64,000 nucleotides of DNA from Candidatus Helarchaeota archaeon (GTDB lineage Archaea; Asgardarchaeota; Lokiarchaeia; Helarchaeales; RDOG01), in the NCBI GenBank assembly GCA_019058315.1, contig JAHPZH010000001.1, positions 789,169 to 853,168 on the forward strand, read 5' to 3'. Positions 38,001 to 60,116 of this stretch are shown in pieces. The position numbers and the translations under genes are program-made. The notes under the pieces are model-generated. The model was given only the letters and a program-made list of their open reading frames with translations, did no database searches and was not told the origin of the DNA. Every line of letters begins with the position of its first letter. Position 1 is the first letter of the stretch.

Positions 38001-39830
38001 TTCGCCTTCCTTATCACCGAACTTCCCCCATGTGCCTAATAAATTCCCAATTAGATCGTAATAACGAATCATATTATTTTCAATATCTGCTAAGTAAAGA
38101 TAATTGGTCGAATTAACTGTGATTTTAAAATTGTTACTTAATTGTGAATCTTGCCATTTACCAACGGGATCACCAGTTGGAGAAAATATTCTTATTTGTT
38201 TATTACCCGAATCTGCCACATATATTATTGGTAATTCCCATTGTCTTTCTGGGGAGAAAATTGTAATTCCTGAAGGTGTCTTTAACTTTCCTTCTTGATT
38301 GGCTTCCCCATATTCGCCCCACTCTAGAACAAACCTTCCATTTTCGTCGAATTTCTGAATACGATGGTTATAATAGTCAGCTACGTAAATATAATTGTTG
38401 TAATTTGAACCATTCCATTCCTTACTAATATCTAAAGCATAAGGATGATCAAATTGACCCTTTAAAGATCCTGAGCTTCCCCATTCTAAGGTAAAATTTC
38501 CGTTGGAATCAAATTTTTTAATACGATTGTTGAGAGTATCGGCAACATAGATAAATCCTTTAGAATCTATTGCAATATCACGGGGTTGATTCATATAAAT
38601 AGGTCTATCAATAAAAGAATTATCATTAAAAGTAATATTATAATAATTGAGTGTTAAATTGTATAAAAATGCGTTTGAATAACAATCTGTGCTGAAATTG
38701 ACTCTAAATTTAAATATATTTTGAGTAGTATTTCTATATTCCGCTACGCCCAGCCAATTATCCGTATTAAAATCATAATATTCCAAAGTGATATTTGTAC
38801 CTAATTGTTTCTCTGAATTTATATCGACAGCTAAAATAGTTACATTATCACATATTGGAATATCCTTAGATGTATAATAACCATTTGTGAAATTACTTTC
38901 TAAATTCAAGATTCTATTTTCATAATGATTATTTGAAAAATTAAAATCAACTGAATCTATCCAAACTGTAAGGGAGGCACTACTACCAGAAGTACAAGAG
39001 CGGCAAGCATTGAGAAGGGAAGGAGAGTTAATTAATGGATAATCTCCATATTTTACATCATCAACATAAATAAACCATGTTCCACTAGTACAATTCCAAT
39101 GAACTTTGGCATGATACCATGTATTAGACGCCACACTTCTGATATTGCACCAATATGTACCATCCCAATATTGTAATTTGCCATTAATATCACCACGAAA
39201 TCCTATCATTATTCCATCACCAACAGTTGGATAAGGATAAATACAAAAATCACTACGTTCATTAACGTCATCAGATCTAAAATAAAATTCACAAATACCA
39301 GTTACAGAATCGGAAAAATTACATTGAGCTTGACCATAACCAGAACCAGTATCGTTTAATAATATAGTATGATTATGACCAGATATACCTTCGATTATAT
39401 GAATTTCATTAGATCCTGTTGAAATATCTGCCCAGCCCTCAGGGATTGAGTCAATTGTATCATTTTTAAAATTATATTGGGCTTGAAATATTCCTGGATT
39501 CTCTGTTAGATTTAAGTTACCATATCCATAATTTACATTTTGACTAGAATTATGATATTCTGTAAAATTTTTAATAAGTATAGTGTGTATAAATGAATCA
39601 TCAGATTCGTCTTCATTTGTAGTTTGAAGAAAAAGTTCAAAAGGATCTTCAGGAATTGGGTTATAATTGTCAATATATTTGGTTTGTAAAGTGTTTAATA
39701 TTAAAGTAAAATTCAAAAATTCTCTATTTATAAAGTTTGGCTGATTAATTTCAAGAAAATTAGTGAAATTTGGTAAAGTTATTATTGAAATTAAAATTAA
39801 AATGATATATTTTCTTTTATTTGCTCCCAT
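32073..39830 (-). CDS. 2585-aa surface protein: NHL propellers, two LamG/ConA-like domains, DPPG region, Ig-like domains, C-terminal TM
   Basis: Repeated PxxIAxDSxGxIYVADxxNxRIQKFD; two copies of FxNDTI..PxGW...GH...DxVDF; TM then RKWKRKRR. Confidence 0.85.
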   Translation of the reverse strand: MGANKRKYIILILISIITLPNFTNFLEINQPNFINREFLNFTLILNTLQTKYIDNYNPIPEDPFELFLQTTNEDESDDSFIHTILIKNFTEYHNSSQNVNYGYGNLNLTENPGIFQAQYNFKNDTIDSIPEGWADISTGSNEIHIIEGISGHNHTILLNDTGSGYGQAQCNFSDSVTGICEFYFRSDDVNERSDFCIYPYPTVGDGIMIGFRGDINGKLQYWDGTYWCNIRSVASNTWYHAKVHWNCTSGTWFIYVDDVKYGDYPLINSPSLLNACRSCTSGSSASLTVWIDSVDFNFSNNHYENRILNLESNFTNGYYTSKDIPICDNVTILAVDINSEKQLGTNITLEYYDFNTDNWLGVAEYRNTTQNIFKFRVNFSTDCYSNAFLYNLTLNYYNITFNDNSFIDRPIYMNQPRDIAIDSKGFIYVADTLNNRIKKFDSNGNFTLEWGSSGSLKGQFDHPYALDISKEWNGSNYNNYIYVADYYNHRIQKFDENGRFVLEWGEYGEANQEGKLKTPSGITIFSPERQWELPIIYVADSGNKQIRIFSPTGDPVGKWQDSQLSNNFKITVNSTNYLYLADIENNMIRYYDLIGNLLGTWGKFGDKEGEFSKPTDIAFDSEGDVHIMDSLNHRIQKFTFSGDYINESSWGILGYEEGEFYAPNGLVIDQQDDFYLADPLNYRIQKYDNETNFLWQVGTVIPELEIPTVTYIDKWSQYGNMNLNNSRGMAVDSEGNQYVCDSANNVIVKFDKFGNFIKKWGNGSPSVEYEFNNPGGITVDSDGYIYVADSGNNRIHIFSDSIYFFNFNTWAANDTFSFPNDLEVYTDKENRDYLYVVDKNNKRIVKFFIDKEVENREILGYMYITDWDSYEIEDEIHYFQEPYGIAIDSEGSLTVSDGENKSLIIFDSTGEPSSKINNTFNNPLGLYYDSHNRLYLIDTDPDYNNHSLYILTGLIIFAKIDINTTTPLDVCVDLNDNILITTNNSILKYRYLKNFPSLLSIIEPNFTQSSLNTSISPAFDKQGNIYALKDNLIYKFDNYGNYLATFNSGLNGTGTDIEIKNFENVSFLYHALHDDNGPEHVVIYALDGEKIYQINITNYDNLSSIVIDDNQSIYCLTNSEILKFAYTSGHYKGLFSFTNDTIGCNPSGWTVEETLPTTVQVVSEVIGHKKVVEMVKVDDKIEYSFGDDYDNGIVEFYIQSTDVNNFYEFRFTIAPKSGSSKYCRAYINNDHFTGKNGSDLFYICSAIDNTWYHFKVVFNVSSGWYLFINDIRYPTSGEYAFSSDSTPYSYIQFENFQSGSYKNYVDAVDFSWSEGYYEGRNKEMDHYCSLSNYNGSGEISSEGLKNQIEVDSLGNLYYLSHSTNEILKIDWEAQEISERWHIDQNLTEHQIFMDKKDNLYLLNKLDGEAQILKFSNESDLTSRYEFNYNESEDISLSIDYFRDVYIFKNISSNQSMLYKYGSQEIPPELTFQLTDDESWTEVIMNTTGYIFGISSIDNSIKIYNSSGYYRKTLSDSGLESPFRIDIDSNNYLIVMDSDSTIKIYDDEIQYFNTIIYEPNLNFIDFYITDKINILAENQSGNYYIRSYIYNLTSAELNYSISDVDLKLPTSICVFTNDDLDQIYITDLLDNKIKVIYENGSILREWGKYGSMCGDFIGPYKVVRDYCGGVYVLDIGNSRIQKFDKHGNFKSEWGQFRWSLVPNGLKNNIDLAINQNDILVLDSLRIDKFHYEFLGNDTYNSEDPDNTDEYIADEKIFITERIIEEGAEFDIPVIYGIIYDPPGTGSYGYIKKGSERYIDLKINLKTSYEHDMISIFTINGFGGGIGGGGFIEWTNDNSWRIYEKTTEEITSSKSNDKEFMGPGRGDVIWGRYKLDYYYLVEITKYNSKGEIIAPPEYKYYTWMDLGGEIQITMQEISTAFKNNTKLPKLLKALKRANLVYDNIVDSSELDDEIPSSIEDTSSIISILYPKATKLKDNLFLTGGGQTYTYEEENSEAVSYLLSTNTGCNIRAYVKLGHDWGHSIGYISAPLGFGTYTGITSKYKYQFDYTFTYKWVVEQSIEVGQEETKTMGYIFEDQPTRNIADQYIIDVYRDKRYQTLAFTIENLSKSHDPWEYYTRDNVPPRICEIDLVDQNNNTKPDNIVGETARIRVQAEDIDLSNNPESGVDNVILYDNLSSTVDEPIEIQFEPAVDGYFYFDLDITELGFGEGYRTIYTRAYDNYSNYKISEIQILIDKSSPHLVKIAPLVSPQLPGAIELYATANDTNDIAYVKYYDGDPDSNGEFIGTSYNFGDSWKFIWVTNRTDEGNHSIYVVAYDNGGNFADDGPSMIYIGDPDPPSKCIIIEPNDGEAKNGDVTIKVEVYDQFSGVHKVEFFIGDPKDDGVLMDSINKDPFLSSMTECEFIWDIDSVNDDLYEIFIVAYDNYSNNRTDKIHLYIDKKAPNVFNFTYGHRNNYSVEFWVNNLSDDLSGIAKVEYYKGSVKIGEGIQPDQFQFLWFGPNGTHDIWARAYDWTGNYTDSNNNETVIIIYGNNKGKHPILLFPKLNDANWALISQIGVILGSIGVTAILFIRKWKRKRRNYSKMLKKS

Positions 39831-44259: not shown

Positions 44260-45723
44260 ATGGTGTTTAAAGTCAACAATGAAATACAAGAAAATAATTA
44301 TTCTTTAGCACAAAGAGAGATTAATTTAATTGTAAAAAAATTTAATAAAAAATTTAAAATTAATTTTAGAGAATTATTTGAAAACGAAATTACAAATCAA
44401 AGGAAAATTCAATTAATTAAAAATTTTTATGAAACTTTATTAATAAAATTTAAAGATTTAGAGAATTCTGAAGCTTTTAATAATTTTTTAAAAGAATTTG
44501 AATCAATTTTAGTTGACGAATCTAAATTAATTGACAAATTCTTAATAATTTGTGAAAAATTTGGAATTCAATTCAAATTACCAAAAAAAATTGATGATAT
44601 TTTTCATATTTATCGTATAATATCGAATCCCAATACCTCTACTAAATATTATTTTATACTCAAATGTTTTTATGAAAATTCGAATAGATATTTAACAAAA
44701 AAACATGTTGAAATCTTATTATCTGAAATTCTAGGGGATTCAATAATTGATTTAGATGTTTACTTTAGAAATTTAAAATCTGTGAAATTAATAAAAAAAC
44801 AAAGTAAGAGATATCATTTAACAGAAATCGGAGTTACTTTTTTTGATTCAATTTTAAAATTAAAAGAAGAAATGAAAATACCTTTAATAGATAAATTAGA
44901 TCGGGTTATGCTATTACAAGCATTATATGATGAAAAAGGAATTCCTATACAAAGTCATCATCATATTCAACAAATAAGTTCTCTTATTAAAGAATTTATT
45001 GATGAAATTATAGAACACGATAATGTCCTTGAATGGTCGTCATACCTTGATAAGTTAGATGATATTATTTTAGATCTAGAAACATTTGCCCAAAGATATA
45101 AAAATGATTTCGGGATTTATCAACAAATATTAAGAGAAAAATCAGAATTAGCAAGAAAACTTGCAATTTATCATGAAGTGGCTCAAGAATCACTTAATAA
45201 ATACATTTCTTTAATTCATCAAGGATACGATCCAAAAAGAATGAAGTTAATCATTAATTTATTTAATAAAACTATATTCTCAGAATTATCAAATTGTTTA
45301 TACAACAATATTTTAAATGCTAGATTACCTCAGAATGAAGATTTATGGATGGATATTTTAATCATTAATAAAAAAGATTTTGAAGATATTAAGGATAATA
45401 GAATAAAAGAATCAATTATGACTGAAAAATTAAAAGATTCTAAGGCAATTGAATTATTAGATTTTTATTATCCTAGTTATAAATTGATGGGAGAAAAATT
45501 AATTTCGAAAATTAATAAATCGCCAATCAAATTATCAGAATTAACCAAAAGGTGGGATTGTAATTGGAAAATTTTAGCAGATTTCATTAATAATTTACCT
45601 TCAATTATAACCGAATTTCCTATCATTGCAATTGCTCAGAAGAAAATATTTAATTTCAAAGAAGGTATTGCAAGAGAGGGTATATTTTATACTTTATTAT
45701 CGGGTGAGAAGAATGATATTTGA
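44260..45723 (+). CDS. Putative kleisin-like subunit (JetA/MukF/MksF-like)
   Basis: wHTH (FRNLKSVKLI...YHLTEIG), helical bundle, C-terminal wHTH-like segment (PIKLSEL); first gene of the SMC operon. Confidence 0.5.
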   Translation: MVFKVNNEIQENNYSLAQREINLIVKKFNKKFKINFRELFENEITNQRKIQLIKNFYETLLIKFKDLENSEAFNNFLKEFESILVDESKLIDKFLIICEKFGIQFKLPKKIDDIFHIYRIISNPNTSTKYYFILKCFYENSNRYLTKKHVEILLSEILGDSIIDLDVYFRNLKSVKLIKKQSKRYHLTEIGVTFFDSILKLKEEMKIPLIDKLDRVMLLQALYDEKGIPIQSHHHIQQISSLIKEFIDEIIEHDNVLEWSSYLDKLDDIILDLETFAQRYKNDFGIYQQILREKSELARKLAIYHEVAQESLNKYISLIHQGYDPKRMKLIINLFNKTIFSELSNCLYNNILNARLPQNEDLWMDILIINKKDFEDIKDNRIKESIMTEKLKDSKAIELLDFYYPSYKLMGEKLISKINKSPIKLSELTKRWDCNWKILADFINNLPSIITEFPIIAIAQKKIFNFKEGIAREGIFYTLLSGEKNDI

Positions 45724-46291
45724 AATTAACGACGAATTCTTAGAAGATGTTCAACTATTAATCAATATTTTAATATTTAACGGAGGGAAAGGTATTAGTT
45801 TAGATGAAATTAAAAAGATTTTTGAAGAAAATTGTGATTCTATAATCAACGAAACTGATATCATTTTAAAGATGCTTCAGATAGAATTAAGAAATAATGA
45901 GAATAGACTTTTTATTGTTCCAAATAGAAAAATATATACTCAATTAAATTTATATGGTATAACAAATAAATTATTATCTCTAGAAACTAAAGAGCGAGAA
46001 AAACTAACACGCTTTATTACATTGTACTTGGCTGAGGGGAAAAATGAACCAATATCTAAAGAAAAAGTTAAATTTGAATTAAATGAAAAGTTTGGACTTA
46101 ATTTAGTTGAAAAAGATCTAAGAACTTTAGAAAGGTTTGGTTATATTAAATTAATTCATAATAAATTCGTTGATCTGGGATGGAGATTAAAAAATAGCAA
46201 AGAATTTAAAAGTTTTGAAACAAAATTTTTAGAATTTATAAAGAGGTTTGAAAAAAAACAAGTGTTAAAGGATAAAATTCGAAATGACTAG
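45713..46291 (+). CDS. Putative KITE subunit (tandem wHTH; JetB/MukE/ScpB/Nse1-like)
   Basis: 192 aa from ATG 45713 (GGTGA upstream; overlaps the previous stop); two wHTH units (GISLDEIK...; LRTLERFGYI...LGWR). Confidence 0.6.
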   Translation: MIFEINDEFLEDVQLLINILIFNGGKGISLDEIKKIFEENCDSIINETDIILKMLQIELRNNENRLFIVPNRKIYTQLNLYGITNKLLSLETKEREKLTRFITLYLAEGKNEPISKEKVKFELNEKFGLNLVEKDLRTLERFGYIKLIHNKFVDLGWRLKNSKEFKSFETKFLEFIKRFEKKQVLKDKIRND

Positions 46292-49145
46292 AATTTTGAA
46301 ACGATTAATTGTTAGAAATTTCAGATTATTTGGAGACAAAGAAAGAATTTTTGACTTTGGAGGAGGTTTTACTGAATTTATAGCGGGTAATTATAAAGGT
46401 AAAAGTACTTTATATTACGCTATAAAAATTGGATTAACAGGCAAAATACCTTCAGGTATGAGAAGATTAGGAGATCAAGGGGCTATACATTTTCCTCAAC
46501 TTGACGACAAGAATAAAGCTAAGAAAGCACAAGAAAAATTAAATGCAGAAATAAATATAGTTTTAAATAATGAACCTGGTGAAAATGGAAGAATTTTTTA
46601 TGAATTTGATCCATCATCAGATGAAATAATTATTGAGACGACTATTCCTCCTAGGGGAAAAATTAAATGTTATGTAAATGGAATAGAATGGGAGAAAAAT
46701 AATATTAGGACAGTTTTAAAAAGATTAGGAATTAATCCTGAAAACCCATTACTATTTTTAGAACAGGGGAAAGCTACAACTTTACTATCTAAGGGGCCAA
46801 TTGGTCTAATGGAATCTTTTGAAGAAACATTAGATTCTAAAGAGACAAAAGAAAATTTAGATGATGCCTTAAATTCTTACTTGAATACCGAAGAACAATA
46901 TAAGAATACCAGAACGAGATTTTATGAATTAGAAAGGACTTTGAATAAGTATGAAAAAGAATACGAAAGATTTAAAAAGTTTCTAGATTTAAATAGCGAG
47001 TTAAAAAGAACTCAAATTGAAAAACTTGTAAAAATTTTAAATGATACCATTATTTCTTTAGAATCTGATAAAAATGATTTAACATCAATTGAAGATAATA
47101 ATAAAGAAATTTACACTGAAAATGAGAATTTAATTAAGGATTTAAATAAAATTAGAATTGAAATAGCTAAATATCAAAATGAGAAAAAAGTTATTGAAGA
47201 ATTAAAGGAGAAATATCAAATTGAACTGGGTCAAATTAGATTAAAAATAGATAATTATCCTGAAAAATTAAACAAAATAGATTCAATTTTAAATGAAATT
47301 AATAAATTAAGACAATTAAATATAATAGAATTAAATAATAGATTAAGTATCTTAAAAGAAACACTATCAAAATCTAATTATGAAAATGAAGGAATTAAAA
47401 ATAATATTAGTAAAATTAGAACAGAATTGAAAGAATTAAAAAAAGGAGGGTTAATAGGACCAAGTAATTCTGAGAAATTTTTAAAAATTTTAAAGCAAAA
47501 TGAGATAAAAGCAGATTTATTAATAAATACATTAAATATAGAACCAATTCCATCTGACAATATTGAAAAAATTAAAAAATTACAATATTTTGAATCAGTT
47601 CTTGGTACTTTAAGGTGGTCGATAGTTATATATGATTTTAAAGATGAATTCGCAAAAGCTGTGAAAATTGCTAAAGAATGTTTTTTCAACAATTATTTAA
47701 TTAAAATAAATGAAGGAAATAATAATCTTCAAAAATATTCAATTGTTTTTGATATAATAAATTTAAATTCAAAAAGTCTATTAATTAAAAAGTATATTGA
47801 AAAGGTTATAGATGAATTTGAAAAAAAAATACTAAAAATTGAAGATTATAGATTAATAAAAGATATGTTTGGAACTAGATTTTTTATTTTAAAACCTGGA
47901 GAATTCTATTTAAACAAAAGTGAAAGAGTAAAATGGTTAGAAAAACAGGAAGGTGTCTTAACTAAAAATAAAAAGGAAATGACTAAAAAAATTGAACAAA
48001 TGGAGCAGGAAATATTAGAAATTAATGAAATAAACGAGAAAATCGAAAAAGAAGAACAATTGATTTTGGAGAAGGAAAAATTAATTTCTGAATATAAAAA
48101 GAATAAAGCTAGAGATATAAAGATTAAAAAAGAATTAGAAAAAAATAAAAATGAAATAAAAAATTTTGAAGAAATGATTGAAGAATCACGAAAAAAAGAA
48201 TATGATATTAATTATAAATTAGAGAATAATCAAAGAATTTTAGACAATAACAATATAAAGATTTCAGATCTTAGGAATCAAAATAACAAACTAGAGATTA
48301 TAATAAAAAATTATAATAAATTTTTAAGAAATGTAAAAGAAAATTTCAAAAGACCTCGCGAAATATCTATCCTTAATTATATTATTAATGAAATTAATGA
48401 AAATTTAAAAAAATTATCTAATATTGATTTTGAAATAAAAGAAAAATATTTTAAAACTAAAGGATCTTATGACGACGTGATAGTTGCATTTGAAAAAATC
48501 CAAGATGATTTATATAAGAAAATAGAACGTGTTAAGAAATATCAACTCGAACATAAGGAGTTTATTGAGAAAGTTTTAAAAGAATTAAATAGAGAATTTT
48601 CAAAAATTCTAACTCAAATTGATTTTAAAGGTAAGATAATTAGTAAATTATATCGTAAAGAAAAAAGAAAAGGATTGAAAGTAATTTCAGAAGATCCAGA
48701 AATTATTATGACTCCTAAAACTAAATATGGTCTGGACTTATTAATAAAAGAACCTAATGATACAATTTTTTATCCTCTTTTTAATGAAGAAGGTAATGTT
48801 TCGATTCGTCACTCAGGAGGAAAAAGAGAAATTCTAATGTTAGCTTTTTTATTATCTATACAACGAATTTTGAAACGATTTTCAAGTTTTTATACATTAG
48901 ATGAACCTACACCACATATGGATGATAAAAATACGGAATTGTTCATGAAAATATTAGGAGAATCTGAAAATCAGATAATTTTATTTACGCCTAGACCAAT
49001 ACCTGCGGAGCATGTAGATGAAATTATTTCTTTGATTGATAATAAAATTTACAAGATAGATAAGAAGGAACTAAAAAAAATAAAAATATCAAAAGATACG
49101 AATCTAAATGAGTATTTTTACATTCGTAAAGGTGAAATAAATTAA
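46284..49145 (+). CDS. SMC-family ATPase (SMC5/6 / JetC-like)
   Basis: VRNFR, Walker A AGNYKGKST, Q-loop GINPENPLLFLEQG, long coiled coils around a central hinge (FESVLGTLRWSIVI), signature HSGGKRE, Walker B FYTLDEPTPHMD, ILFTP. Confidence 0.9.
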   Translation: MTRILKRLIVRNFRLFGDKERIFDFGGGFTEFIAGNYKGKSTLYYAIKIGLTGKIPSGMRRLGDQGAIHFPQLDDKNKAKKAQEKLNAEINIVLNNEPGENGRIFYEFDPSSDEIIIETTIPPRGKIKCYVNGIEWEKNNIRTVLKRLGINPENPLLFLEQGKATTLLSKGPIGLMESFEETLDSKETKENLDDALNSYLNTEEQYKNTRTRFYELERTLNKYEKEYERFKKFLDLNSELKRTQIEKLVKILNDTIISLESDKNDLTSIEDNNKEIYTENENLIKDLNKIRIEIAKYQNEKKVIEELKEKYQIELGQIRLKIDNYPEKLNKIDSILNEINKLRQLNIIELNNRLSILKETLSKSNYENEGIKNNISKIRTELKELKKGGLIGPSNSEKFLKILKQNEIKADLLINTLNIEPIPSDNIEKIKKLQYFESVLGTLRWSIVIYDFKDEFAKAVKIAKECFFNNYLIKINEGNNNLQKYSIVFDIINLNSKSLLIKKYIEKVIDEFEKKILKIEDYRLIKDMFGTRFFILKPGEFYLNKSERVKWLEKQEGVLTKNKKEMTKKIEQMEQEILEINEINEKIEKEEQLILEKEKLISEYKKNKARDIKIKKELEKNKNEIKNFEEMIEESRKKEYDINYKLENNQRILDNNNIKISDLRNQNNKLEIIIKNYNKFLRNVKENFKRPREISILNYIINEINENLKKLSNIDFEIKEKYFKTKGSYDDVIVAFEKIQDDLYKKIERVKKYQLEHKEFIEKVLKELNREFSKILTQIDFKGKIISKLYRKEKRKGLKVISEDPEIIMTPKTKYGLDLLIKEPNDTIFYPLFNEEGNVSIRHSGGKREILMLAFLLSIQRILKRFSSFYTLDEPTPHMDDKNTELFMKILGESENQIILFTPRPIPAEHVDEIISLIDNKIYKIDKKELKKIKISKDTNLNEYFYIRKGEIN

Positions 49146-50625
49146 TTTAGATAAAATTAAGCTAAATAATAAGTGTAAATGTAATAATTATAAAGATTTA
49201 ATCTATAAGATACTTCCTACTAGCAAAATTATAAATATAAATGATTATATATCGGAAATGAAAATAAAAATTAAGGCAAAGGTATGTCCATTTTGCAGTA
49301 AAATAGTAAAAATATTAGATTATAAATTAATAAATGAAATTGTTTATTTTCAGAAAATAATTGATACAAAATTTTTTGATTCATTAAATAAAAATTCTCA
49401 AAATTTTTTGATTAAACTTAATTCTAAAACATTTAGTCATTTTAGGAATTTAAGAAAGGAATTTGGAATTAATTATTTAAATATTATAAAAGATTTGTGG
49501 ACACACGGATTTATTAAAATTAAAAGAAATAAAATAAATCCAAAATTAACTTCATCTATAGAATTGTCATCAAAATATCATGAGAAATTTATTAATAATT
49601 TAGAAAAGAAGGGTATGATAAATAAAACTATTTCATTGACGCCAAATTGTAAGAATTTTTTTATAAACAGATTCATTCACCTTAAAAATAAAGAAATAAA
49701 GGAGAAACGATCTCAAATTATTTCTAAAATAAAATCAAAAATAAAATATTTGGAGGGGTTAGTTCATAAAAATCCTGATGAAAGAATTAAATGGATAAAA
49801 CAAATTTTTGAAAATATTCAATTCAAATCTAATGTAACTATTGGCATCCAGAGATGTGATTTGGATTTTTTAAATAAATTTGATATATTAGAATATAATT
49901 TAGATTTTTTAATATATGTTTGTAACGAAATTTCTAAAAAAGAATTAATTTCAATTAAAAATTTCAATAAAATATATAAGAAAAAAATTTCAAAAGAAAA
50001 ATTTGAAAAGTTAAAAAAATCAATTAGAGATTTCAGAAATATTCCAAGAATCATCTTAAAATTTGATTTAACATGTTATAACATTGTCAAAGAACCTATG
50101 AAGAATATCAGTAGAAGTATGAGACTTTTTAGAGAACTTCAAAATTTTTTAATTAATTTTTTAGAACCTTTGATTAATTCCTTTGTAATTAATAATTTGA
50201 AAAGCGAAGTTGACCTCGATAAAATTTGGTCTGAAAGAATTCCAAGAAATGTTAGAAATAGTATAAAAGGAGCTTTTTATTCTACAAAAAAGAAATTGAA
50301 AGTTGAAAGAATTATTTATGAAGCTGAATTTCAGGATTTAATTGATAATTGTAAAATTGATGAACTATTAAATTATTCCTTATTTAATTCCTTGGGTTCA
50401 ATTATTATTTATCCAGTCAATTGGGATTCAATTTTTAAAGACTATTTTACATTCTGTTCAACTTCCTCTGAGTTACAAGATAAATTCCTAAAGTTATTTT
50501 TTCTTAGAAATAAAGTTGCTCATAAAAAAGATATAAAAATTGATATTTTAAAAATACTTAAAATAGAGAATATTGAATTATCAGAAATTTTAGAATTTTG
50601 TTTTAATTTATTAAGATCGTTATAA
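49141..50625 (+). CDS. Zn-ribbon/wHTH protein with C-terminal Swt1-like HEPN domain
   Basis: Frame is open from ATT 49141, overlapping the SMC stop, with GGTGA at 49131; CKC...CPFC; C-terminal WSERIP...LLNYSLF..L..II..NW..IF...F...RNKVAH. Confidence 0.7.
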   Translation: MNLDKIKLNNKCKCNNYKDLIYKILPTSKIININDYISEMKIKIKAKVCPFCSKIVKILDYKLINEIVYFQKIIDTKFFDSLNKNSQNFLIKLNSKTFSHFRNLRKEFGINYLNIIKDLWTHGFIKIKRNKINPKLTSSIELSSKYHEKFINNLEKKGMINKTISLTPNCKNFFINRFIHLKNKEIKEKRSQIISKIKSKIKYLEGLVHKNPDERIKWIKQIFENIQFKSNVTIGIQRCDLDFLNKFDILEYNLDFLIYVCNEISKKELISIKNFNKIYKKKISKEKFEKLKKSIRDFRNIPRIILKFDLTCYNIVKEPMKNISRSMRLFRELQNFLINFLEPLINSFVINNLKSEVDLDKIWSERIPRNVRNSIKGAFYSTKKKLKVERIIYEAEFQDLIDNCKIDELLNYSLFNSLGSIIIYPVNWDSIFKDYFTFCSTSSELQDKFLKLFFLRNKVAHKKDIKIDILKILKIENIELSEILEFCFNLLRSL

Positions 50626-50788: not shown

Positions 50789-52756
50789 CTACTCCCTGAA
50801 ATACTTTCTTTTTACGATAACTTCTCCTATATTGTCTCGAATATTCTTTTGATATCGCTGTTCAATTTCATTAATTCGTTTACGGGAATAAAATTCAGAA
50901 CCACCATATTCACCAACATTAACAAACAATATTTTTAATTCAGGATAGTGCTTTTTATTAAAAATTCGAACAACTTTATAATTAAATGGCAAGACTTTGC
51001 TTGTTAGAGATGGAACAACTATGAAATCAACTTTATTTTCTTCAGCCCATTTTGAAATTACTTCATATAAACGAAGAAAATCTTTACAAATAAAAATCGC
51101 AATCCTACCAAATGTAGTTTGAAAAATATTGATTTTAGGTTTTCTCTCACATTTTATACTCTCAATGATGTTGGGGTATATCAAAACAGGTGTTTGTTTT
51201 TTCTGAATATTATGTGCGAAATTATCAATTATAATTGCCTGATTTAAATACTCATCAAATTTATGTGATTTGTGCATTTTTGATAAGTCATCCCAAGAAA
51301 AACGATATCGGGGACTTTTTATGTGTTCCATCCCTCCTATGAATAAAATATTAAAATCAGTATTTATCTCTTTAAATTGCTTAATAGTATTAATCAGGCC
51401 TTTAAGGTAATTGTTTGGGATTGAATTTTCTGGAAAAATTATGAGTTTATTTTTCCCAGGATCCCTTAAAATTAGTTCCATTATTTCATTAGTTTTCTTA
51501 AATATACCCAAGTCGGTTACATCATACTGAAGAACATTTGATTCTATTGCATCAGGTCTCCAAACTTGTTTCACGAAATAAAAAAAATGATCTTTTATAG
51601 ATTCATCTGGTTTAAAGTTATATTTCATAGAAAGCGAGTGAATTTGTACCATGTAAATTTGGACTTCTCTAATATTTTTATTAAATTTATTTAATGGAAT
51701 TTCATTAGGTTCATAAGCTAAAAACCACGCATTCTGTTTATCCCTTAAAATATCATTTTCTCTCCAAGTTCCCAAATCAAGGATTTCCTCTTCTGATACA
51801 CTCTCAATATATTCTTTATATTCTTTTATTCTTTTTGCATTTAATTCAACTTTACTAATAGGTTGTTGTTCTCTCTTCTTGCAATAATCAAGGACTTTTG
51901 GAATTGAAGTTTTTAATAAGTGAATCTCTTCAAAAGACAAAGGATTGTATTCAAGGCGTAATACCCTAAGCCTAGTAAGATTTGTTAATCCTTTAATTTC
52001 AGTTATTCTATTATTACTAAGATTTAGATGTTCAAGCTGAGTTAAAGCCTCCAAATTCCTAATTTCGGTGATTTGATTGCTTGCAAGATTTAAAAATTTA
52101 AGTTTATTTAATTTATCTAGCTTTTTGATTTCTGATATTTTGTTCCCACTGAGAAAAAGAGCCCTAAGATCTTTTAAACTGTCTAACTTTTCAATATTTG
52201 AAATTAAATTAGAAGAGAGATCTAAAGTTTGAAGATTTATAAGAGAATCCAGATTTTTGATTTCTTTTATTTTATTAAACATTAAATTCAAAGTTTTTAG
52301 TGAAGTTAAGGCGTCTAAGTTTTCTAATTCTGGAATCTTATTTTTTATACATTCTAGAAAAGATAATTTAGTGAGATGATCAATATTTTCAATTTTTGAA
52401 ATTTGATTATTACCTAAAAACAAAGATTTCAGATTAGTTGAAGTCTCAAGTTCTTCAATTTTTGTTATTTGGTTATTATTAAATATTAGCGTTTTAAGTT
52501 GTGTTAGATTTTCCAAATTTTCAATTTTTTTTATTTGATTACCTGCAAGTCTTAAATCTAGGAGATTAGTTAAGGTTTCTAAATTCTTAATCTCGGAAAT
52601 TTTATTGTATGAAAGATCTAATACTTGAAGGTGAGTCTGCTGTTCTAATTTCTTAATCTCTGAAATATCTCTTATTCCAACCGCATTTAATTGAAGATAT
52701 TTAATTCCATTAACATCCTCAATTTTATAAGATTTTCCCCTAAATTCCACGGACAT
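50789..52756 (-). CDS. Leucine-rich repeat protein fused to a nitrilase/carbon-nitrogen hydrolase domain
   Basis: About 11 SDS22-like 22-aa LRRs, then IIFPENS (Glu), QKKQTP (Lys) and IFICKDF (Cys). Confidence 0.8.
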   Translation of the reverse strand: MSVEFRGKSYKIEDVNGIKYLQLNAVGIRDISEIKKLEQQTHLQVLDLSYNKISEIKNLETLTNLLDLRLAGNQIKKIENLENLTQLKTLIFNNNQITKIEELETSTNLKSLFLGNNQISKIENIDHLTKLSFLECIKNKIPELENLDALTSLKTLNLMFNKIKEIKNLDSLINLQTLDLSSNLISNIEKLDSLKDLRALFLSGNKISEIKKLDKLNKLKFLNLASNQITEIRNLEALTQLEHLNLSNNRITEIKGLTNLTRLRVLRLEYNPLSFEEIHLLKTSIPKVLDYCKKREQQPISKVELNAKRIKEYKEYIESVSEEEILDLGTWRENDILRDKQNAWFLAYEPNEIPLNKFNKNIREVQIYMVQIHSLSMKYNFKPDESIKDHFFYFVKQVWRPDAIESNVLQYDVTDLGIFKKTNEIMELILRDPGKNKLIIFPENSIPNNYLKGLINTIKQFKEINTDFNILFIGGMEHIKSPRYRFSWDDLSKMHKSHKFDEYLNQAIIIDNFAHNIQKKQTPVLIYPNIIESIKCERKPKINIFQTTFGRIAIFICKDFLRLYEVISKWAEENKVDFIVVPSLTSKVLPFNYKVVRIFNKKHYPELKILFVNVGEYGGSEFYSRKRINEIEQRYQKNIRDNIGEVIVKRKYFRE

Positions 52757-53008: not shown

Positions 53009-53069
53009 AGTGACTAAAAAAAGTCCTAGTGACTAAAATAAGTTCCGAAAAGTGACTACAAAAGGTATC
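53009..53069 (+). repeat. Three direct repeats of AGTGACTA(A/C)AA just upstream of the nuclease gene
   Basis: Copies at 53009, 53028 and 53051. Confidence 0.6.
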
Positions 53070-53078
53070 TTTAACAAA

Positions 53079-53654
53079 ATGAAAGAAATTGAGCTAATAG
53101 ATGGGTTTTGCGAATTTCTAGAAGCGCAAAACCTAAGTTATAAGAGAGAATTATGGAGAGGAAGTCGTTTTAATGAGGGGTATGTGGATATCGTAATTTT
53201 TGATGGTGAATATATAGGCATAGAAGCAAAATTAAATAATTTCAATTCTGTATTAGCCCAAGCTTGGGTAAATACTCTGTATTTTCCCTTATCTTATATA
53301 TTATATTCCAAATCTCCAACCAGATATAATAAATTCGAATTGAAAAAGACAACGATAGGGCTAATCATTCCTCAAGGTAAAGGTTTTAAAATATTAAGAA
53401 AACCAAGAATGAATAAGACTTGTTTTTATGATATAATTAAAAGAAATTGGGAGGAAAATAGAGTTGGGAGGAAAATACATAATTCTGAAATTCCAGAAAA
53501 TTATAATATTGAGAAAGTTAAAGAATTAGAATGTACATATGATTGGTTAAAATCTAAATTTGAACTTGATTTAAAGAATAAAATTCAAAAACGAATAATT
53601 GATTTTCTGGATGATCTACGAATTGAAAAAAGAGAACACGAAATTCTTCCCTAA
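53079..53654 (+). CDS. Small PD-(D/E)XK nuclease-fold protein
   Basis: E...YVDIV....IGIEAK.....LAQA pattern; start placed at ATG 53079. Confidence 0.65.
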   Translation: MKEIELIDGFCEFLEAQNLSYKRELWRGSRFNEGYVDIVIFDGEYIGIEAKLNNFNSVLAQAWVNTLYFPLSYILYSKSPTRYNKFELKKTTIGLIIPQGKGFKILRKPRMNKTCFYDIIKRNWEENRVGRKIHNSEIPENYNIEKVKELECTYDWLKSKFELDLKNKIQKRIIDFLDDLRIEKREHEILP

Positions 53655-55896
53655 AAAAGATATTAATGACAATATTGACAAATTCATAGCGTGGATAGGA
53701 TTTTTTATATCAGATTTTCTTCTCGAATACTCCCTTAATCTATTTGAAATGTTTAAAGAGAACTACCAAAACGATCCTGAAAAATATGTTGCCTTTGAAA
53801 TATTTGATTCATGGAAAGATCAAACCAATCGTAGGAATGAATTAGAAGATAAAAATAAAGCTCAATTTTGTATAGAATCAATATTGATGTTTCTAATTAA
53901 AATTTTATTTTTAAGAATTTGCGAAGATAAAGGAATTTACCCCCATTCCTTAAAGAAAATTGTATTATACGGTAGAACCGCATTATTAAATAATGAAATC
54001 AAAGATGATGACGTTTTAAACTCAATTTTTAAAAGAATTATCGAATTATCACCCAATTATTTTAATTACGGAGTATTACACTGGCATTTAACTCAAGACA
54101 AAATTTTTAATGAATATCTAAATAGAATTATCGATTTTTTCTATCGATTTGATTTTAAGAACTTAGACTGGGATATTTTAGGTAATATTTATGAAAAATG
54201 TATATTTAAAGAAAGGAGGAAATCCTTAGGTCAATTTTATACTCCAATTGAAATTATTGATTATATACTTGAAAAAACAGGTTATAGAGCAAGTTCAGAA
54301 ATTGAAAATCTGAAAGTTATAGACCCTTGTTGTGGTTCCGGTTCATTTTTGATTCGAGCGATTAAAAAATTAATAGAGAGATATAAAATAAAATATCAAA
54401 CGGATATTTTTTCTCCAAAGCAAGCAGAAAATGTTCTCAAGAGTATAACAAATAACATTTATGGATTTGAAATAAACAATTTTGCATGTTTTCTAGCAAA
54501 AATGAATATAATCTTTCAAATCATTGAGCTTTATTATCTTGTACTTAAAAATAACAATTCATATAAGCAAGATCCTTTTCACATCCTTAATATTGATGTG
54601 TTAAATCTTAAATTTACGGAAATTGAGCCTTTAATTGGAAGTATAAAACCTGATATTGTTGTAGGAAATCCTCCATATGTTTTCATTAGAGATTTGCCAG
54701 AATCTGAAAGAAAAAGAATTCAAGCTCTCGAACTAGAAACAAACAAAGGACAGTGGGATTTATATCAATTATTTATTGAAATCGGAATAAAACTGTTAAA
54801 TGAAGGAGGATATTTTGGATATATCGTCCCAGATAGCATCCTAGCTAATAGTGAAAGGGGAGTTGTTCGAGAATTCATCAATAATAATTGTAATATTGAA
54901 ATTGTGCATCATGTTGGAAAGAAATTCAAAATGCCCGTTGTATCAAATGTTATTCTAATACTTCAAAAAGCAAGTGAACCCAACTATGATACAGAAACAA
55001 ACCTGATTTTTAGCTCAGATGAGAGAGAAATAGTCAATACAATACAACAAAGAGAAATTAAGGAAAATTGGGATTATAAATTCTATTTACATTTATCCAA
55101 GGAAGATGATAAATTAATTAAAAAATTGAAAGAGTTTCCAACTATTGAAGAAATTGATAAAAATAATCCCAAAATTAATATTAAAATCAGTAGAGGTGTG
55201 GAATTAACCAAGAAAGGCAAGATCTTTTACTGTTCTAATTGTAAAATTTATTATCCCTTACCTGAAAAACAAAATAAATGTAGGATTTGTGGAAATGATT
55301 TTGTTGTTAATTCGATTGAAACTATTGTAAATGAAAAAAAAATAGATGAAAATTATAAATTATTTGTTTCAGACCTTAATAGATATAAAATTCAGAAATA
55401 TCAATATATTGCTATAAATAAGGAAGGGATTAATTATAAAAATCCAGAAATTTATCTCCCAAATCGGATAATAGTTAGACAATTAAGTGAAAGTGGGCTA
55501 ATCTGCGCAACTATAGAACCAGAAGGAGCTTACACTAGTCAAAGCATTTACAATATTAATACAAATTTAAATCCTTATTATTTGTTAGGTATAATTAATT
55601 CAAAATTAATGAGTTACTATTTTTCTAAGATTTTTGGCAGTTATAAATCTCTTTTCCCAAGAATTTTAATTGAATATATCAAAAAATTACCTTTAGCGAT
55701 TGCTGATAAAAATATCGAATCCCAGATTGAAAATTTAATAAAAAAAATACTTAATCTTAATATTAAAGAAGTGAACGAAGGTAAAAAATTCTGTTTAATG
55801 GATTTTCAACCCCAAATTGATAGTTTGGTTTTTAATCTGTATGGTTTAAATTTATCTGAAAAGTTGCTTGTCCGAAATTTTTTTGATGCAATTTGA
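53611..55896 (+). CDS. N6-adenine DNA methyltransferase with TaqI-like target-recognition domain
   Basis: LGQFYTP, DPCCGSG, VGNPPY, YLLGIINSKL motifs; CxxC..CxxC insert. Confidence 0.9.
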   Translation: MIYELKKENTKFFPKKDINDNIDKFIAWIGFFISDFLLEYSLNLFEMFKENYQNDPEKYVAFEIFDSWKDQTNRRNELEDKNKAQFCIESILMFLIKILFLRICEDKGIYPHSLKKIVLYGRTALLNNEIKDDDVLNSIFKRIIELSPNYFNYGVLHWHLTQDKIFNEYLNRIIDFFYRFDFKNLDWDILGNIYEKCIFKERRKSLGQFYTPIEIIDYILEKTGYRASSEIENLKVIDPCCGSGSFLIRAIKKLIERYKIKYQTDIFSPKQAENVLKSITNNIYGFEINNFACFLAKMNIIFQIIELYYLVLKNNNSYKQDPFHILNIDVLNLKFTEIEPLIGSIKPDIVVGNPPYVFIRDLPESERKRIQALELETNKGQWDLYQLFIEIGIKLLNEGGYFGYIVPDSILANSERGVVREFINNNCNIEIVHHVGKKFKMPVVSNVILILQKASEPNYDTETNLIFSSDEREIVNTIQQREIKENWDYKFYLHLSKEDDKLIKKLKEFPTIEEIDKNNPKINIKISRGVELTKKGKIFYCSNCKIYYPLPEKQNKCRICGNDFVVNSIETIVNEKKIDENYKLFVSDLNRYKIQKYQYIAINKEGINYKNPEIYLPNRIIVRQLSESGLICATIEPEGAYTSQSIYNINTNLNPYYLLGIINSKLMSYYFSKIFGSYKSLFPRILIEYIKKLPLAIADKNIESQIENLIKKILNLNIKEVNEGKKFCLMDFQPQIDSLVFNLYGLNLSEKLLVRNFFDAI

Positions 55897-57360: not shown

Positions 57361-58659
57361 TTACTCCAATTGAATATAATCTGATTGAAGGCGAAGAATT
57401 TCATCTAACATCTTCTCAGCTTGAGTAGCGCTGTCCACAACAGGGTCTACAAGGAGTGCTTGTAATGCTATATCTTTAGATTTAGTTAGAACTGCTTCAA
57501 CCACGAGATCTTGCACTGATGCTTGATTTCGAAGTAGTCCCGCAAGCCCTTTAGGATAGTCTCCGAGTTTAACTGGATGAATACCGTCTTTATTTATAAT
57601 TCCAGGGCATTCAACCACAAGATCCCTCGGCAGATTTGTAATAATATCCTCATTAGGCAGATTTACCGTGAGTTCTTCATGATTTGAATTTGTTAGAATC
57701 CCCTCAATGATTGGAATTGCCCGTTCTGGATCTGGTCTTACAAGTCTTGCTCCTTTTCCCCTTTTTATTAGACTTCTCATTGTATCACCTGTGCTCAAAG
57801 TTGTTGCTTTATATAATCTATAAAATTCTTGACCTTTTTCAAAATCTGCCACTTCCCACCCCCATTGTATATATTCTCCAATATGAGAATCTGGTGTATA
57901 AAAGAGATACCCAAATTTTTCAAGCATATATTTAACGAGATCAACGTCAAAAGCTGTTATTTTTCGAAAATATTCAGGTCCCTTCTTACGTATTTCGGGA
58001 TAGGCATCTTTTCCAGAATCGCGATATTTTACTTCTAACACTGCGGCGAAATGATTTAATCCCCCTGCTTTAATTTTGAGTTTAGAAAATGGAACCCCAA
58101 GGAGTTGAGGAAGGTAAATTTGAGCTGCTGCAATTGCATGACAAAGCCCAACAAATTTAAGCGAAGGAAACTTTCGTTTAATTGCAAGACAAACTCGACT
58201 CATAGGATTAGAAAAATTGATAAATAATGCGTTTGGACAGATTTTTTGAACATCTGAACAAATTTCGAGAATTGGAGGAATAACTCTTAAAGAATGGAAA
58301 AAACCACCAGGCCCTCCATTTTCACCATAAACTTGTTTATTGCCAAATTTTCGTGGAATGTTAAAATCCATTTCCCAAAGTTCGAAACGTGGAGTTACTT
58401 CTATAGAATTGATGATAAAGGTCGCGTTTTTCAAGGCATCTGATCGACTAGTCGTAGTTTCTAATGTAAAGTCTAATTTTTTCTTATCAATTGCGGATTG
58501 ACAAGATTGATAAACCATATCTAATGATTTCTGATCTATATCATGAAGGGTAATAGTGGAACCTCTCAAAACTTCGCTAGCCAGGATATTTCCTACGGTT
58601 CCTAATCCAAATTGTAAGGATCCCGCTCCAGTTAAAACAATTTTTTCTTTACTCGACAT
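57361..58659 (-). CDS. Glycoside hydrolase family 4 (alpha-glucosidase/galactosidase), copy 3
   Basis: GAGS, ENGGPGG, NFSNPM, GLCH, GLNH and VVECP motifs. Confidence 0.92.
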   Translation of the reverse strand: MSSKEKIVLTGAGSLQFGLGTVGNILASEVLRGSTITLHDIDQKSLDMVYQSCQSAIDKKKLDFTLETTTSRSDALKNATFIINSIEVTPRFELWEMDFNIPRKFGNKQVYGENGGPGGFFHSLRVIPPILEICSDVQKICPNALFINFSNPMSRVCLAIKRKFPSLKFVGLCHAIAAAQIYLPQLLGVPFSKLKIKAGGLNHFAAVLEVKYRDSGKDAYPEIRKKGPEYFRKITAFDVDLVKYMLEKFGYLFYTPDSHIGEYIQWGWEVADFEKGQEFYRLYKATTLSTGDTMRSLIKRGKGARLVRPDPERAIPIIEGILTNSNHEELTVNLPNEDIITNLPRDLVVECPGIINKDGIHPVKLGDYPKGLAGLLRNQASVQDLVVEAVLTKSKDIALQALLVDPVVDSATQAEKMLDEILRLQSDYIQLE

Positions 58660-58697
58660 AGATTAAAAATAATATAAACTCATTATAAATTTTTTTT
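58660..58697 (-). promoter_or_regulatory. Putative TATA-box promoter for a leaderless GH4 transcript
   Basis: A-tract then TTTATAAT about 25-30 nt upstream of the ATG; similar elements precede the other two copies. Confidence 0.35.
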
Positions 58698-58739
58698 ATT
58701 CTATATCTTTCAAATTCTTGATTTTTGTGAGTTTATTCC

Positions 58740-60038
58740 TTACTCCAAATAAATGTAATCTGATTCAAGACGAAGAATTTCATCTAACATCTTCTCAGCT
58801 TGAGTGGCGCTGTTAACAAGTGGGTCTACAAGGAGTGCTTGCAGAGCTATTTCTTTAGATTTAGTGAGGACTGTTTCAACCGCAAGATCTTGCACTGAAG
58901 CTTGATTCCGAAGTAGTCCCGCAAGTCCTTTGGGATATTCTCCGAGTTTAATGGCATGAATACCATCATTATTTATGATCGCGGGGCATTCAACTACAAG
59001 ATCGCTAGGTAAATTTGTAATAATATCATCATTAGGTAGATTAACAGAAAGCTCTTCATGATTTGAATTGGTCAGAATCCCCTCAATAATTGGAATCGCC
59101 CGTTCTTGATCTGGTCTTACAAGTCGTGAACCTTTTCCTCTTTTTATTAACTTTCTCATTGTTTCACCTGTGCTCAATGTTGTTGCTTTATATAGGTTGT
59201 AAGCGTTTTGAAATTTTTTAAAATCTATTATTTCCCACGCCCATTGTATAAATTCTCCAATATGTGAATCTTCTGTATAAAAGAGATAACCGAATTTTTC
59301 AAGCATATATATAACGAGGTCAACGTCAAAAGCTGTCATTTTTTGAAAATATCCAGGTCCCTTTTTTCGTATTTCAGGATAGGCATCTTTTCCAGTATCA
59401 CGATATTTCACCTTTAATAATGCAGCAAAATGATTTAATCCTCCTGCTTTAATTTCGATATTAGCAAATGGAACCCCGAGGAGTTGGGGAAGGTGAATTT
59501 CAGCAGCCAAAATTCCATGACAGAGCCCTACAAAATTAAGAGAAGGAAATTTCCGTTTAATTGCCAGACAAACTCGACTCATTGGATTAGAAAAATTGAT
59601 AAATAATGCATTTGGACAGATTTTTTTGACATCTGAACAAATTTCGAGAATTGGAGGAATAACTCTTAATGAATGGAATAACCCCCCAGGACCACCATTT
59701 TCACCATTTATTTGTTTAACACCAAATTTCCTTGAAATATTAAAATCCATTTCCCATAGTTCGAATCGGGGGGTTACTTCTATAGAATTGATGATAAAAG
59801 TAGCGTTTTTTAGGGCATCTGATCTACTAGTTGTAGATTCTAATGTGAAATCTAATTTCTTCTTATCAATTGCGGATTGACATGCTTGATGAACCATATC
59901 TAATGATTCTTGATTTATATCGTGAAGAGCAATGGTGGAGCCTTTCAAAACTTCGCTAGCTAGGATACTTCCCACAGTTCCTAATCCAAATTGTAAGGAT
60001 CCCGCTCCAGTTAAAACAATTTTTTCTTTACTCGACAT
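58740..60038 (-). CDS. Glycoside hydrolase family 4, copy 2
   Basis: Same GH4 motifs; 432 aa. Confidence 0.92.
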   Translation of the reverse strand: MSSKEKIVLTGAGSLQFGLGTVGSILASEVLKGSTIALHDINQESLDMVHQACQSAIDKKKLDFTLESTTSRSDALKNATFIINSIEVTPRFELWEMDFNISRKFGVKQINGENGGPGGLFHSLRVIPPILEICSDVKKICPNALFINFSNPMSRVCLAIKRKFPSLNFVGLCHGILAAEIHLPQLLGVPFANIEIKAGGLNHFAALLKVKYRDTGKDAYPEIRKKGPGYFQKMTAFDVDLVIYMLEKFGYLFYTEDSHIGEFIQWAWEIIDFKKFQNAYNLYKATTLSTGETMRKLIKRGKGSRLVRPDQERAIPIIEGILTNSNHEELSVNLPNDDIITNLPSDLVVECPAIINNDGIHAIKLGEYPKGLAGLLRNQASVQDLAVETVLTKSKEIALQALLVDPLVNSATQAEKMLDEILRLESDYIYLE

Positions 60039-60116
60039 AGATTAAAAATAATATAAGATTATTTTAAATTTTTTTAGAGCTTTTTAAGTCTAAAAACTCA
60101 TTTTAGAATTTTTACA

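Follow-up and report, generated by a model that had tools for sequence, protein, structure and literature searches.

The 64,000-nucleotide stretch of a Candidatus Helarchaeota archaeon analysed here (the window) carries four co-directional genes on the plus strand, overlapping at every junction and encoding proteins of 487, 192, 953 and 494 aa. The fourth (gene 4, 49141–50625) appears from its predicted structure to join a JetD-type front half to a C-terminal HEPN domain, an architecture from which we infer descent from JetD. As a whole, the locus is probably best explained as a Wadjet-like operon in which a JetD-derived scaffold carries a HEPN RNase output. We regard it as a rare variant of Wadjet-like build whose effector has been exchanged: in the literature searched, which did not take in the ABC ATPase survey of Krishnan et al. 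2020, neither this variant nor any Wadjet with a HEPN or kinase effector was found.

The model of gene 4 was built from a 12-row alignment (predicted local distance difference test score, pLDDT, 87.9; predicted template modelling score, pTM, 0.71) and used in place of a single-sequence model with a pLDDT of 34. It arranges the chain, from N- to C-terminus, as a zinc site with a hairpin, a winged helix, a helical stalk, a CAP-like part and a Swt1/AbiF-like HEPN domain. The predicted zinc site (49174–49296) consists of C12, C14, C49 and C52 placed around a long β-hairpin, with the CKC motif (residues 12–14, 49174–49182) and the CPFC motif (residues 49–52) enclosing modelled strands 21–33 and 36–48. 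A search of 1.84 billion representatives returned nine relatives, and word-index searches for homologs returned nothing beyond the protein itself. All four cysteines are invariant in the eight homologs with an intact N-terminus (L002, L003, L007, L009, L010, L011, L013 and L025), in keeping with the proposal of an earlier note on this DNA that CKC and CPFC could together bind zinc. The MarR/ArsR-like winged helix that follows (residues 75–184, 49363–49692) superposes on 2eth in the VIA comparison with a Z score of 9.2 and a root-mean-square deviation (rmsd) of 2.2 over 84 aligned residues, and its pI is 10.2. The helical stalk and CAP-like helical domain (residues 185–320, 49693–50100), covered by the Atlas alignment described below, form a long helix and a small helical domain with a hairpin that ends at about residue 320 with YNIVKEP and occupies the place of the pre-Toprim region of JetD. 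Both the winged-helix and the CAP-like parts are strongly basic. An Atlas feature search gave no leads for residues 1–322.

The HEPN domain spans residues 324–494 (50110–50622) and is assigned from its motif, its fold and weak Pfam scores. This all-helical segment, which stands where a Toprim domain would be expected, aligns with AbiF (8vz6; Z 8.9, rmsd 3.6, 151 residues) and with Swt1 (4pqz; Z 6.9). The HEPN_Swt1 profile of Pfam matches five of the seven members tested at E 0.0015–0.019, below its curated gathering cut-off; an HEPN_Swt1 cluster is among the Atlas shape matches, and the Atlas feature searches gave weak HEPN_Swt1 leads only. The sequence RNKVAH (residues 456–461, 50506–50523) fits the RxxxxH motif, and HEPN domains with an Rx4-6H motif are mostly RNases (PMC3710099). 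R456, H461 and the upstream E342 are invariant in 10 sequences at about 30% identity, which fits catalysis, and the domain is likely to be an active RNase. One feature weighs against activity throughout the family: the residue after the arginine, usually polar in the HEPN motif (PMC3710099), is asparagine in this copy but isoleucine in four of the eight full-length members, which read RI(L/M/F)(V/I)AH, so that some members may be weak or inactive. Elsewhere in the genome, which is 94% complete, no JetD_C or Toprim JetD was found.

The link of the front half to JetD is carried first by shape. An unbiased shape search of the Atlas places three JetD-type clusters first, all JetD_C/DUF2399 Toprim proteins whose alignments lie mostly within the N-terminal 300 residues, with 221–231 residues matched (against about 85 for the winged helix), an rmsd of 5.2–5.7 and TM scores by query of 0.32–0.36. 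The JetD_C row aligns 231 residues over positions 28–326 and ends at the HEPN junction (TM 0.36), and rescaling to the N-terminal 310 residues raises the scores to roughly 0.45–0.51, an approximation. The second line of evidence comes from Lokiarchaeial Wadjet operons located by searching the phylum for JetD_C, four with a Toprim domain (G195, G171, G305 and G288) and one with a kinase (G372); their fourth genes match PADLOC JetD (E 4e-16) and Topo VI-A. These operons share with the window the gene layout and sizes (theirs about 455–490, 230–255, 955–980 and 470–495 aa), the N-terminal cysteine motif, a winged helix bearing LTxxG and, in some members, a start codon other than ATG. All five JetD-family proteins read CxC/H-x29-CxxH/C followed by a winged helix, and all eight full-length HEPN proteins read CxC-x33/34-CxxC; among the 2441 long open reading frames (ORFs) of the genome, the pattern recurs in two unrelated iron–sulfur-type proteins. 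The length to the effector junction (about 300–320 aa), the order of elements and the cysteine motif are alike in gene 4 and the Lokiarchaeial JetDs. The two groups differ in effector, which is Toprim or kinase in the Lokiarchaeial Wadjet; in cysteine spacing, 29 residues with a mostly histidine fourth ligand against 33–34; and in their SMC proteins, which are about 20% identical to gene 3.

The kinase form bears directly on whether such an exchange can occur. The G372 fourth gene (L061:8611-10362, G372:C290) encodes a zinc/winged-helix front half followed by a Ser/Thr kinase (Pkinase E 9e-43); its protein keeps residues 4–295 at 36% identity ahead of the kinase, and no canonical start precedes its cysteines. 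In the SMC tree the G372 SMC is nested among Toprim members (96/96), so that an exchange at the effector junction is directly demonstrated in a related clade. Among the operons of this group are divergent Toprim Wadjet operons at L029:7475-17707 (G195), L059, L060 and L062. That of L029 follows immediately on mre11-rad50-like genes, and the other three are preceded by large Rad50-like ORFs. PADLOC does not recognise G195 genes 1 and 2.

Several observations weigh against a JetD origin of the scaffold. The reported Atlas TM scores are below 0.5, query and targets alike are structure predictions, and of the three alignments two extend into the HEPN domain, to residues 413–418. Scans of the gene 4 family with Pfam, PADLOC and NCBIfam returned no JetD or DUF3322 match, and the DUF3322-type (PF11795) profile search of the region before the HEPN domain, which the earlier note had suggested, was likewise empty. 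Profile–profile comparison of the front half with JetD is not significant (best hhalign E 0.005–0.02, probability <7%; E 0.017 for residues 185–320). These tests carry little power and amount to weak negative evidence, since comparing the HEPN with the Toprim clade by hhalign and HMM cross-search gives no significant result for genes 1 and 2 either and the SMCs are only 20% identical. Matches to solved structures are generic MarR/ArsR winged helices and HEPNs; in VIA, where winged helices dominate the list, the solved JetD/MksG chains (type I arm-CAP, 7TIL, 8B7F) fall outside the best 50, and the superposition on solved JetD/MksG that the earlier note had envisaged finds none among the top structural matches. 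Foldseek of gene 4 against PDB and viral models gave nothing at E <= 0.001, and a PDB sequence search with the family profile was empty. As type I and type II JetD already differ from each other in their N-terminal parts (10.1101/2025.03.10.642339), a missing type I match is unsurprising. In addition, the cysteine pattern was defined after the sequences had been seen, and the SMC tree does not resolve a sister relationship between the HEPN and Toprim clades, leaving the direction of the swap unsupported by the tree.

These points leave room for gene 4 as a zinc/winged-helix/HEPN effector or toxin-regulator that was recruited independently to the fourth position of an MksBEF-like operon and resembles JetD through common folds. 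The absence of a profile match to any JetD model and the generic structural matches would suit such a history, as would an orphan homolog without an SMC neighbour, P0010 (L064:3064-3918, 284 aa); this orphan, however, is a truncated piece lying between two U32 peptidase gene pieces, inside a split gene. Because common folds would leave unexplained both the precedence of the three JetD-type clusters in the shape search and the agreement in a rare cysteine motif, element order and junction length, independent recruitment is unlikely. Common descent of the front half with JetD is held with good confidence, and the scaffold resembles the JetD_C/DUF2399 JetDs with a winged-helix N-terminus more closely than the type I arm-CAP form, as far as models can be compared. 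The earlier note's claim that a docking arm was kept while the effector was exchanged therefore holds in part: the Atlas matches, the cysteine motif in five of five JetD-family proteins, the gene position and the kinase swap favour the exchange, and the docking function is a supposition. One of its arguments does not survive. It had likened ISIKNF...SKEKFEKL...YNIVKEP to the end of the JetD N-terminal region, SK.FE...IVK.P; the segment ISIKNF...IVKEP occupies residues of about 270–319, and SKEKFEK falls within an insertion missing from six of the eight full-length members, so the SK.FE motif, unconserved and part of a lineage-specific insertion, was rejected as evidence for JetD.

Gene 4 very probably begins upstream of its first ATG, as the earlier note had claimed. 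The window reads GGTGA (49131–49135), AATAA and then ATT at 49141, an in-frame TAA (49138–49140) standing immediately before the ATT, which in turn overlaps the SMC stop TAA (49143–49145); the gap between GGTGA and ATT is 5 nt. From this ATT the reading frame runs through 494 codons to 50625 without a stop, the first 39 of them lying ahead of ATG 49258. The Shine–Dalgarno (SD) element AGGTGA (49130–49135, plus strand) stands at the modal spacing from the probable near-cognate start (49141–49143); its GGTGA matches the complement of the genome's 16S tail, and genome-wide the distance from GGTGA to ATG peaks at 4–6 nt. The extension with its CxC motif is kept in all eight homologs with an intact N-terminus, and none of them starts at the equivalent of ATG 49258. 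Six homologs begin with ATG or GTG and overlap the SMC stop by 4–11 nt. The L011 homolog, found in two assemblies at about 40% identity, reads GGTGA-CTTAA-ATT, a geometry identical to that of the window junction, and the gene caller missed 120 of its codons. About 135 were missed in L013, whose gene 4 has no canonical start ahead of the cysteines.

Near-cognate initiation is not confined to this junction. The L013 SMC gene reads GGTGA-5 nt-ATC and the L059 JetD gene GGTGA-5 nt-CTG. Across the genome, ATT, ATA, ATC, CTG and ACG codons were scored in the stretch ahead of each first canonical start without an SD element: an SD element at the correct spacing precedes 51 of 1918 near-cognate codons and 106 of 11779 other codons (odds ratio 3.0, p 4e-9), with no near-cognate excess at off-spacing (odds ratio 0.77). 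This enrichment, together with the related GGTGA-ATC and GGTGA-CTG junctions, makes the ATT start well supported as a general habit of the genome and not a peculiarity of gene 4, as judged from sequence statistics. The 51 candidates lie among ORFs of at least 150 codons and exceed expectation by about 34; genes with such starts are shortened by gene callers.

Alternatively, the ATT could be a sequencing error or a recent ATG-to-ATT start loss, the copy being mis-assembled or expressed only as a 455-aa form that has lost half of its zinc site. The two codons differ by one base, and the L010 homolog does read GGTGA-AAT-ATG; against this stand the repeated GGTGA-5 nt-ATT of L011 in two assemblies, the ATC and CTG junctions of L013 and L059, and the on-spacing excess itself, which together make error or loss very improbable. 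Translation of the N-terminal extension is nearly certain, and ATT 49141 is with high probability its exact start. ATT 49156, which has no SD element, is a weaker alternative.

Upstream of gene 4, the operon offers the parts of an SMC motor with differing clarity. Gene 3 (46284–49145, plus strand) encodes an SMC-family ATPase of 953 aa that resembles JetC/MksB and in which the Walker A, SGG signature and Walker B motifs are conserved; it matches SMC_N of Pfam at E 2e-16, and its PADLOC matches to AriA, LmuB and JetC are all weak (JetC profiles E 1e-3 to 0.1). In the SMC tree it lies in a clade of its own, apart from two canonical-length SMC genes elsewhere in the genome (1192 and 1189 aa; G000 C3 near 666715 and C11 frame 659058), whose presence marks the operon SMC as accessory. 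Gene 1 (44260–45723, plus strand; 487 aa) is a putative kleisin of JetA(MksF) type, to judge from its position, size and N-terminal winged helix; Pfam gives weak winged-helix matches only, and PADLOC gives no JetA match. Gene 2 (45713–46291, plus strand; 192 aa), a candidate KITE protein of JetB(MksE) type by position and size, likewise has weak winged-helix-type profile matches only; it begins at an ATG 5 nt after GGTGA, which was used as the start in place of the rejected TTG 45626. That the kleisin and KITE assignments follow from position and size counts against the Wadjet-like reading of the locus.

Gene order is conserved wherever it can be followed. Gene 4 stands immediately after the SMC gene in all nine loci, and the complete loci (L003, L007, L010, L013 and L025) keep the four-gene order with gene 1 first. 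Named relatives belong to Promethearchaeota, as presumably does the host, and the system is rare and patchy, occurring in 3 of 161 genomes of the class. The operon has a GC content of 22%, against 30.5% for the genome, and restriction-modification-like genes lie 2.4 kb downstream. The operon is probably a rare, horizontally moving Wadjet-like defence system of Promethearchaeota (Lokiarchaeia). Tn7-like genes (TnsA-like/Mu transposase and TniB) lie directly downstream of a homologous operon at L007:10176-16002.

Compared with known systems, the operon is closest to Wadjet (JetABCD or MksBEFG, types I–III), with which it has in common a set of four coupled genes ordered A-B-C-D, protein sizes that fall inside the MksF/E/B ranges of PMC7617805, intact SMC ATPase motifs and, in the model, a fourth protein whose front half is shaped like that of JetD_C/DUF2399 proteins. 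It departs from Wadjet in that gene 4 carries HEPN in place of the C-terminal Toprim and has an extra N-terminal zinc hairpin and winged helix, in that no PADLOC Jet model recognises genes 1, 2 and 4, and in that gene 4 has no DUF3322 match and no solved type I JetD among its best 50 structure matches. JetD is described only as a Toprim nuclease (PMC10586767, 10.1101/2025.03.10.642339, 10.1101/2023.11.03.565488); having no Toprim domain, the operon is not a strict Wadjet member, though it is built like one. With Lamassu (LmuABC/DdmABC) it shares an SMC-like sensor, gene 3 giving weak LmuB matches. Lamassu mounts exchangeable effectors on a docking domain and acts by abortive infection (PMC10586767), but its effector is the N-terminal part of LmuA, encoded ahead of the ATPase gene, and a kleisin/KITE pair is missing, whereas the effector in the window is C-terminal in a fourth gene downstream of the SMC; PADLOC finds no LmuA or LmuC match among the operon proteins. 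RloC and PrrC offer a functional parallel, a HEPN under the control of an ABC-family ATPase that senses the state of DNA (PMC3710099), a control that is presumed here; in them, ATPase and HEPN share one chain, without kleisin, KITE or JetD parts. The RxxxxH motif and fold also recall AbiF/Swt1-like HEPNs, although AbiF is an RNA-regulated toxin, unlike the SMC-linked gene 4.

A mechanism can be proposed by analogy. In type I Wadjet, the front half of a JetD dimer holds it on JetC and JetB, with a contact to the JetC larynx (10.1101/2023.11.03.565488), and activation follows once the motor has extruded a small circle (10.1101/2023.11.03.565488, PMC10586767); the HEPN of RloC is held off by its own ATPase until DNA is damaged (PMC3710099). 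Genes 1–3 would accordingly form a kleisin–KITE–SMC motor that scans DNA, of which the SMC is evident and the other two subunits presumptive. Gene 4, translated from ATT 49141 through coupling to the SMC stop, would descend from a JetD ancestor that kept its zinc hairpin, winged helix and CAP-like front and had its Toprim replaced by a Swt1/AbiF-like HEPN. The front half may bind both motor and DNA, docking, by analogy with JetD, on the SMC core. A motor stalled on a small foreign DNA circle could then reposition two HEPNs into an active RNase site, and the pair would cut cellular RNA, leading to dormancy or death. This complete SMC-triggered RNase mechanism is tentative, falling just short of an even balance.

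The scaffold might instead dock while its HEPN turns on the invader itself, cutting or binding plasmid or viral transcripts, R-loops or even DNA held on the stalled motor without bringing about an abortive outcome; or the HEPN might be a dimerisation module with no catalytic role. Wadjet acts on the plasmid directly, without abortive infection (PMC10586767), the eukaryotic Swt1 HEPNs are listed as inactive (PMC3710099), and such a role would suit the basic winged-helix and CAP-like parts as well as the half of the members with no polar residue after the arginine. The invariant arginine, histidine and glutamate fit catalysis, however, and RloC and PrrC, the characterised HEPN effectors tied to ATPase sensors, cleave host tRNA, so that either version is rather unlikely beside an RNase directed at cellular RNA.

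Wadjet has been described as an SMC sensor with a single output, the Toprim nuclease JetD, and Lamassu as the system with many effectors. A JetD-type scaffold with an RNase, beside a kinase form from the same archaeal class, would mean that the motor signal is transferable to unrelated enzymes. It is conceivable, though rather less likely than not, that the JetD front half is a general plug-in adaptor and that Asgard Wadjet-type loop-extruding motors have interchangeable outputs (Toprim DNase, kinase and HEPN RNase), driving in the present case an abortive RNase response to a foreign DNA circle. A standing question, what activates JetD, thereby becomes open to direct test: protein contacts and dimer geometry, or the bent DNA itself, since an RNase or a kinase has no use for a kinked DNA substrate. 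The operon also adds an Asgard archaeal defence system that escapes PADLOC and Pfam, in part through the truncation of its fourth gene by gene callers at non-ATG starts.

A second operon type (L020:1790-8995, L018:44-4099) encodes a 540-aa protein, an MksE-like protein of 240 aa (MksE match E 7e-5 in L020) and a JetC1-like SMC of 1261 aa, followed in both loci by the same CAP-HEPN module as in gene 4, behind a different, cysteine-free N-terminus; the L020 arrangement speaks for the Wadjet-like reading. The fourth gene of L018 and L019 is interrupted at a run of A and continues in another frame, alike in both assemblies, and a Mu-type transposase lies downstream of the L018 operon. A separate operon at L024:458-5767 combines a 1043-aa SMC with small winged-helix genes and ORFs that look ScpA/ScpB-like by eye, and adjoins an AAA ATPase.

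Within the window, a leucine-rich repeat and nitrilase/CN-hydrolase-like fusion (50789–52756, minus strand) is convergent with the operon and matches the PADLOC RT-associated nitrilase at E 3e-7. Beyond it (53052–55896, plus strand) lie a small nuclease-like ORF with a weak restriction endonuclease match and an N6-adenine methyltransferase, which has a specificity domain of TaqI-like type as well as a CxxC...CxxC ribbon as an insertion. Three tandem 432-aa ORFs follow (57361–61415, minus strand); the two that were compared are close paralogs and by eye resemble family 4 glycoside hydrolases. Upstream of the operon are two very large ORFs on the minus strand, of 2585 aa (32073–39830) and 3583 aa (11319–22070), the former resembling, by eye, a protein with an N-terminal signal, numerous NHL-like repeats and a membrane anchor at its C-terminus.

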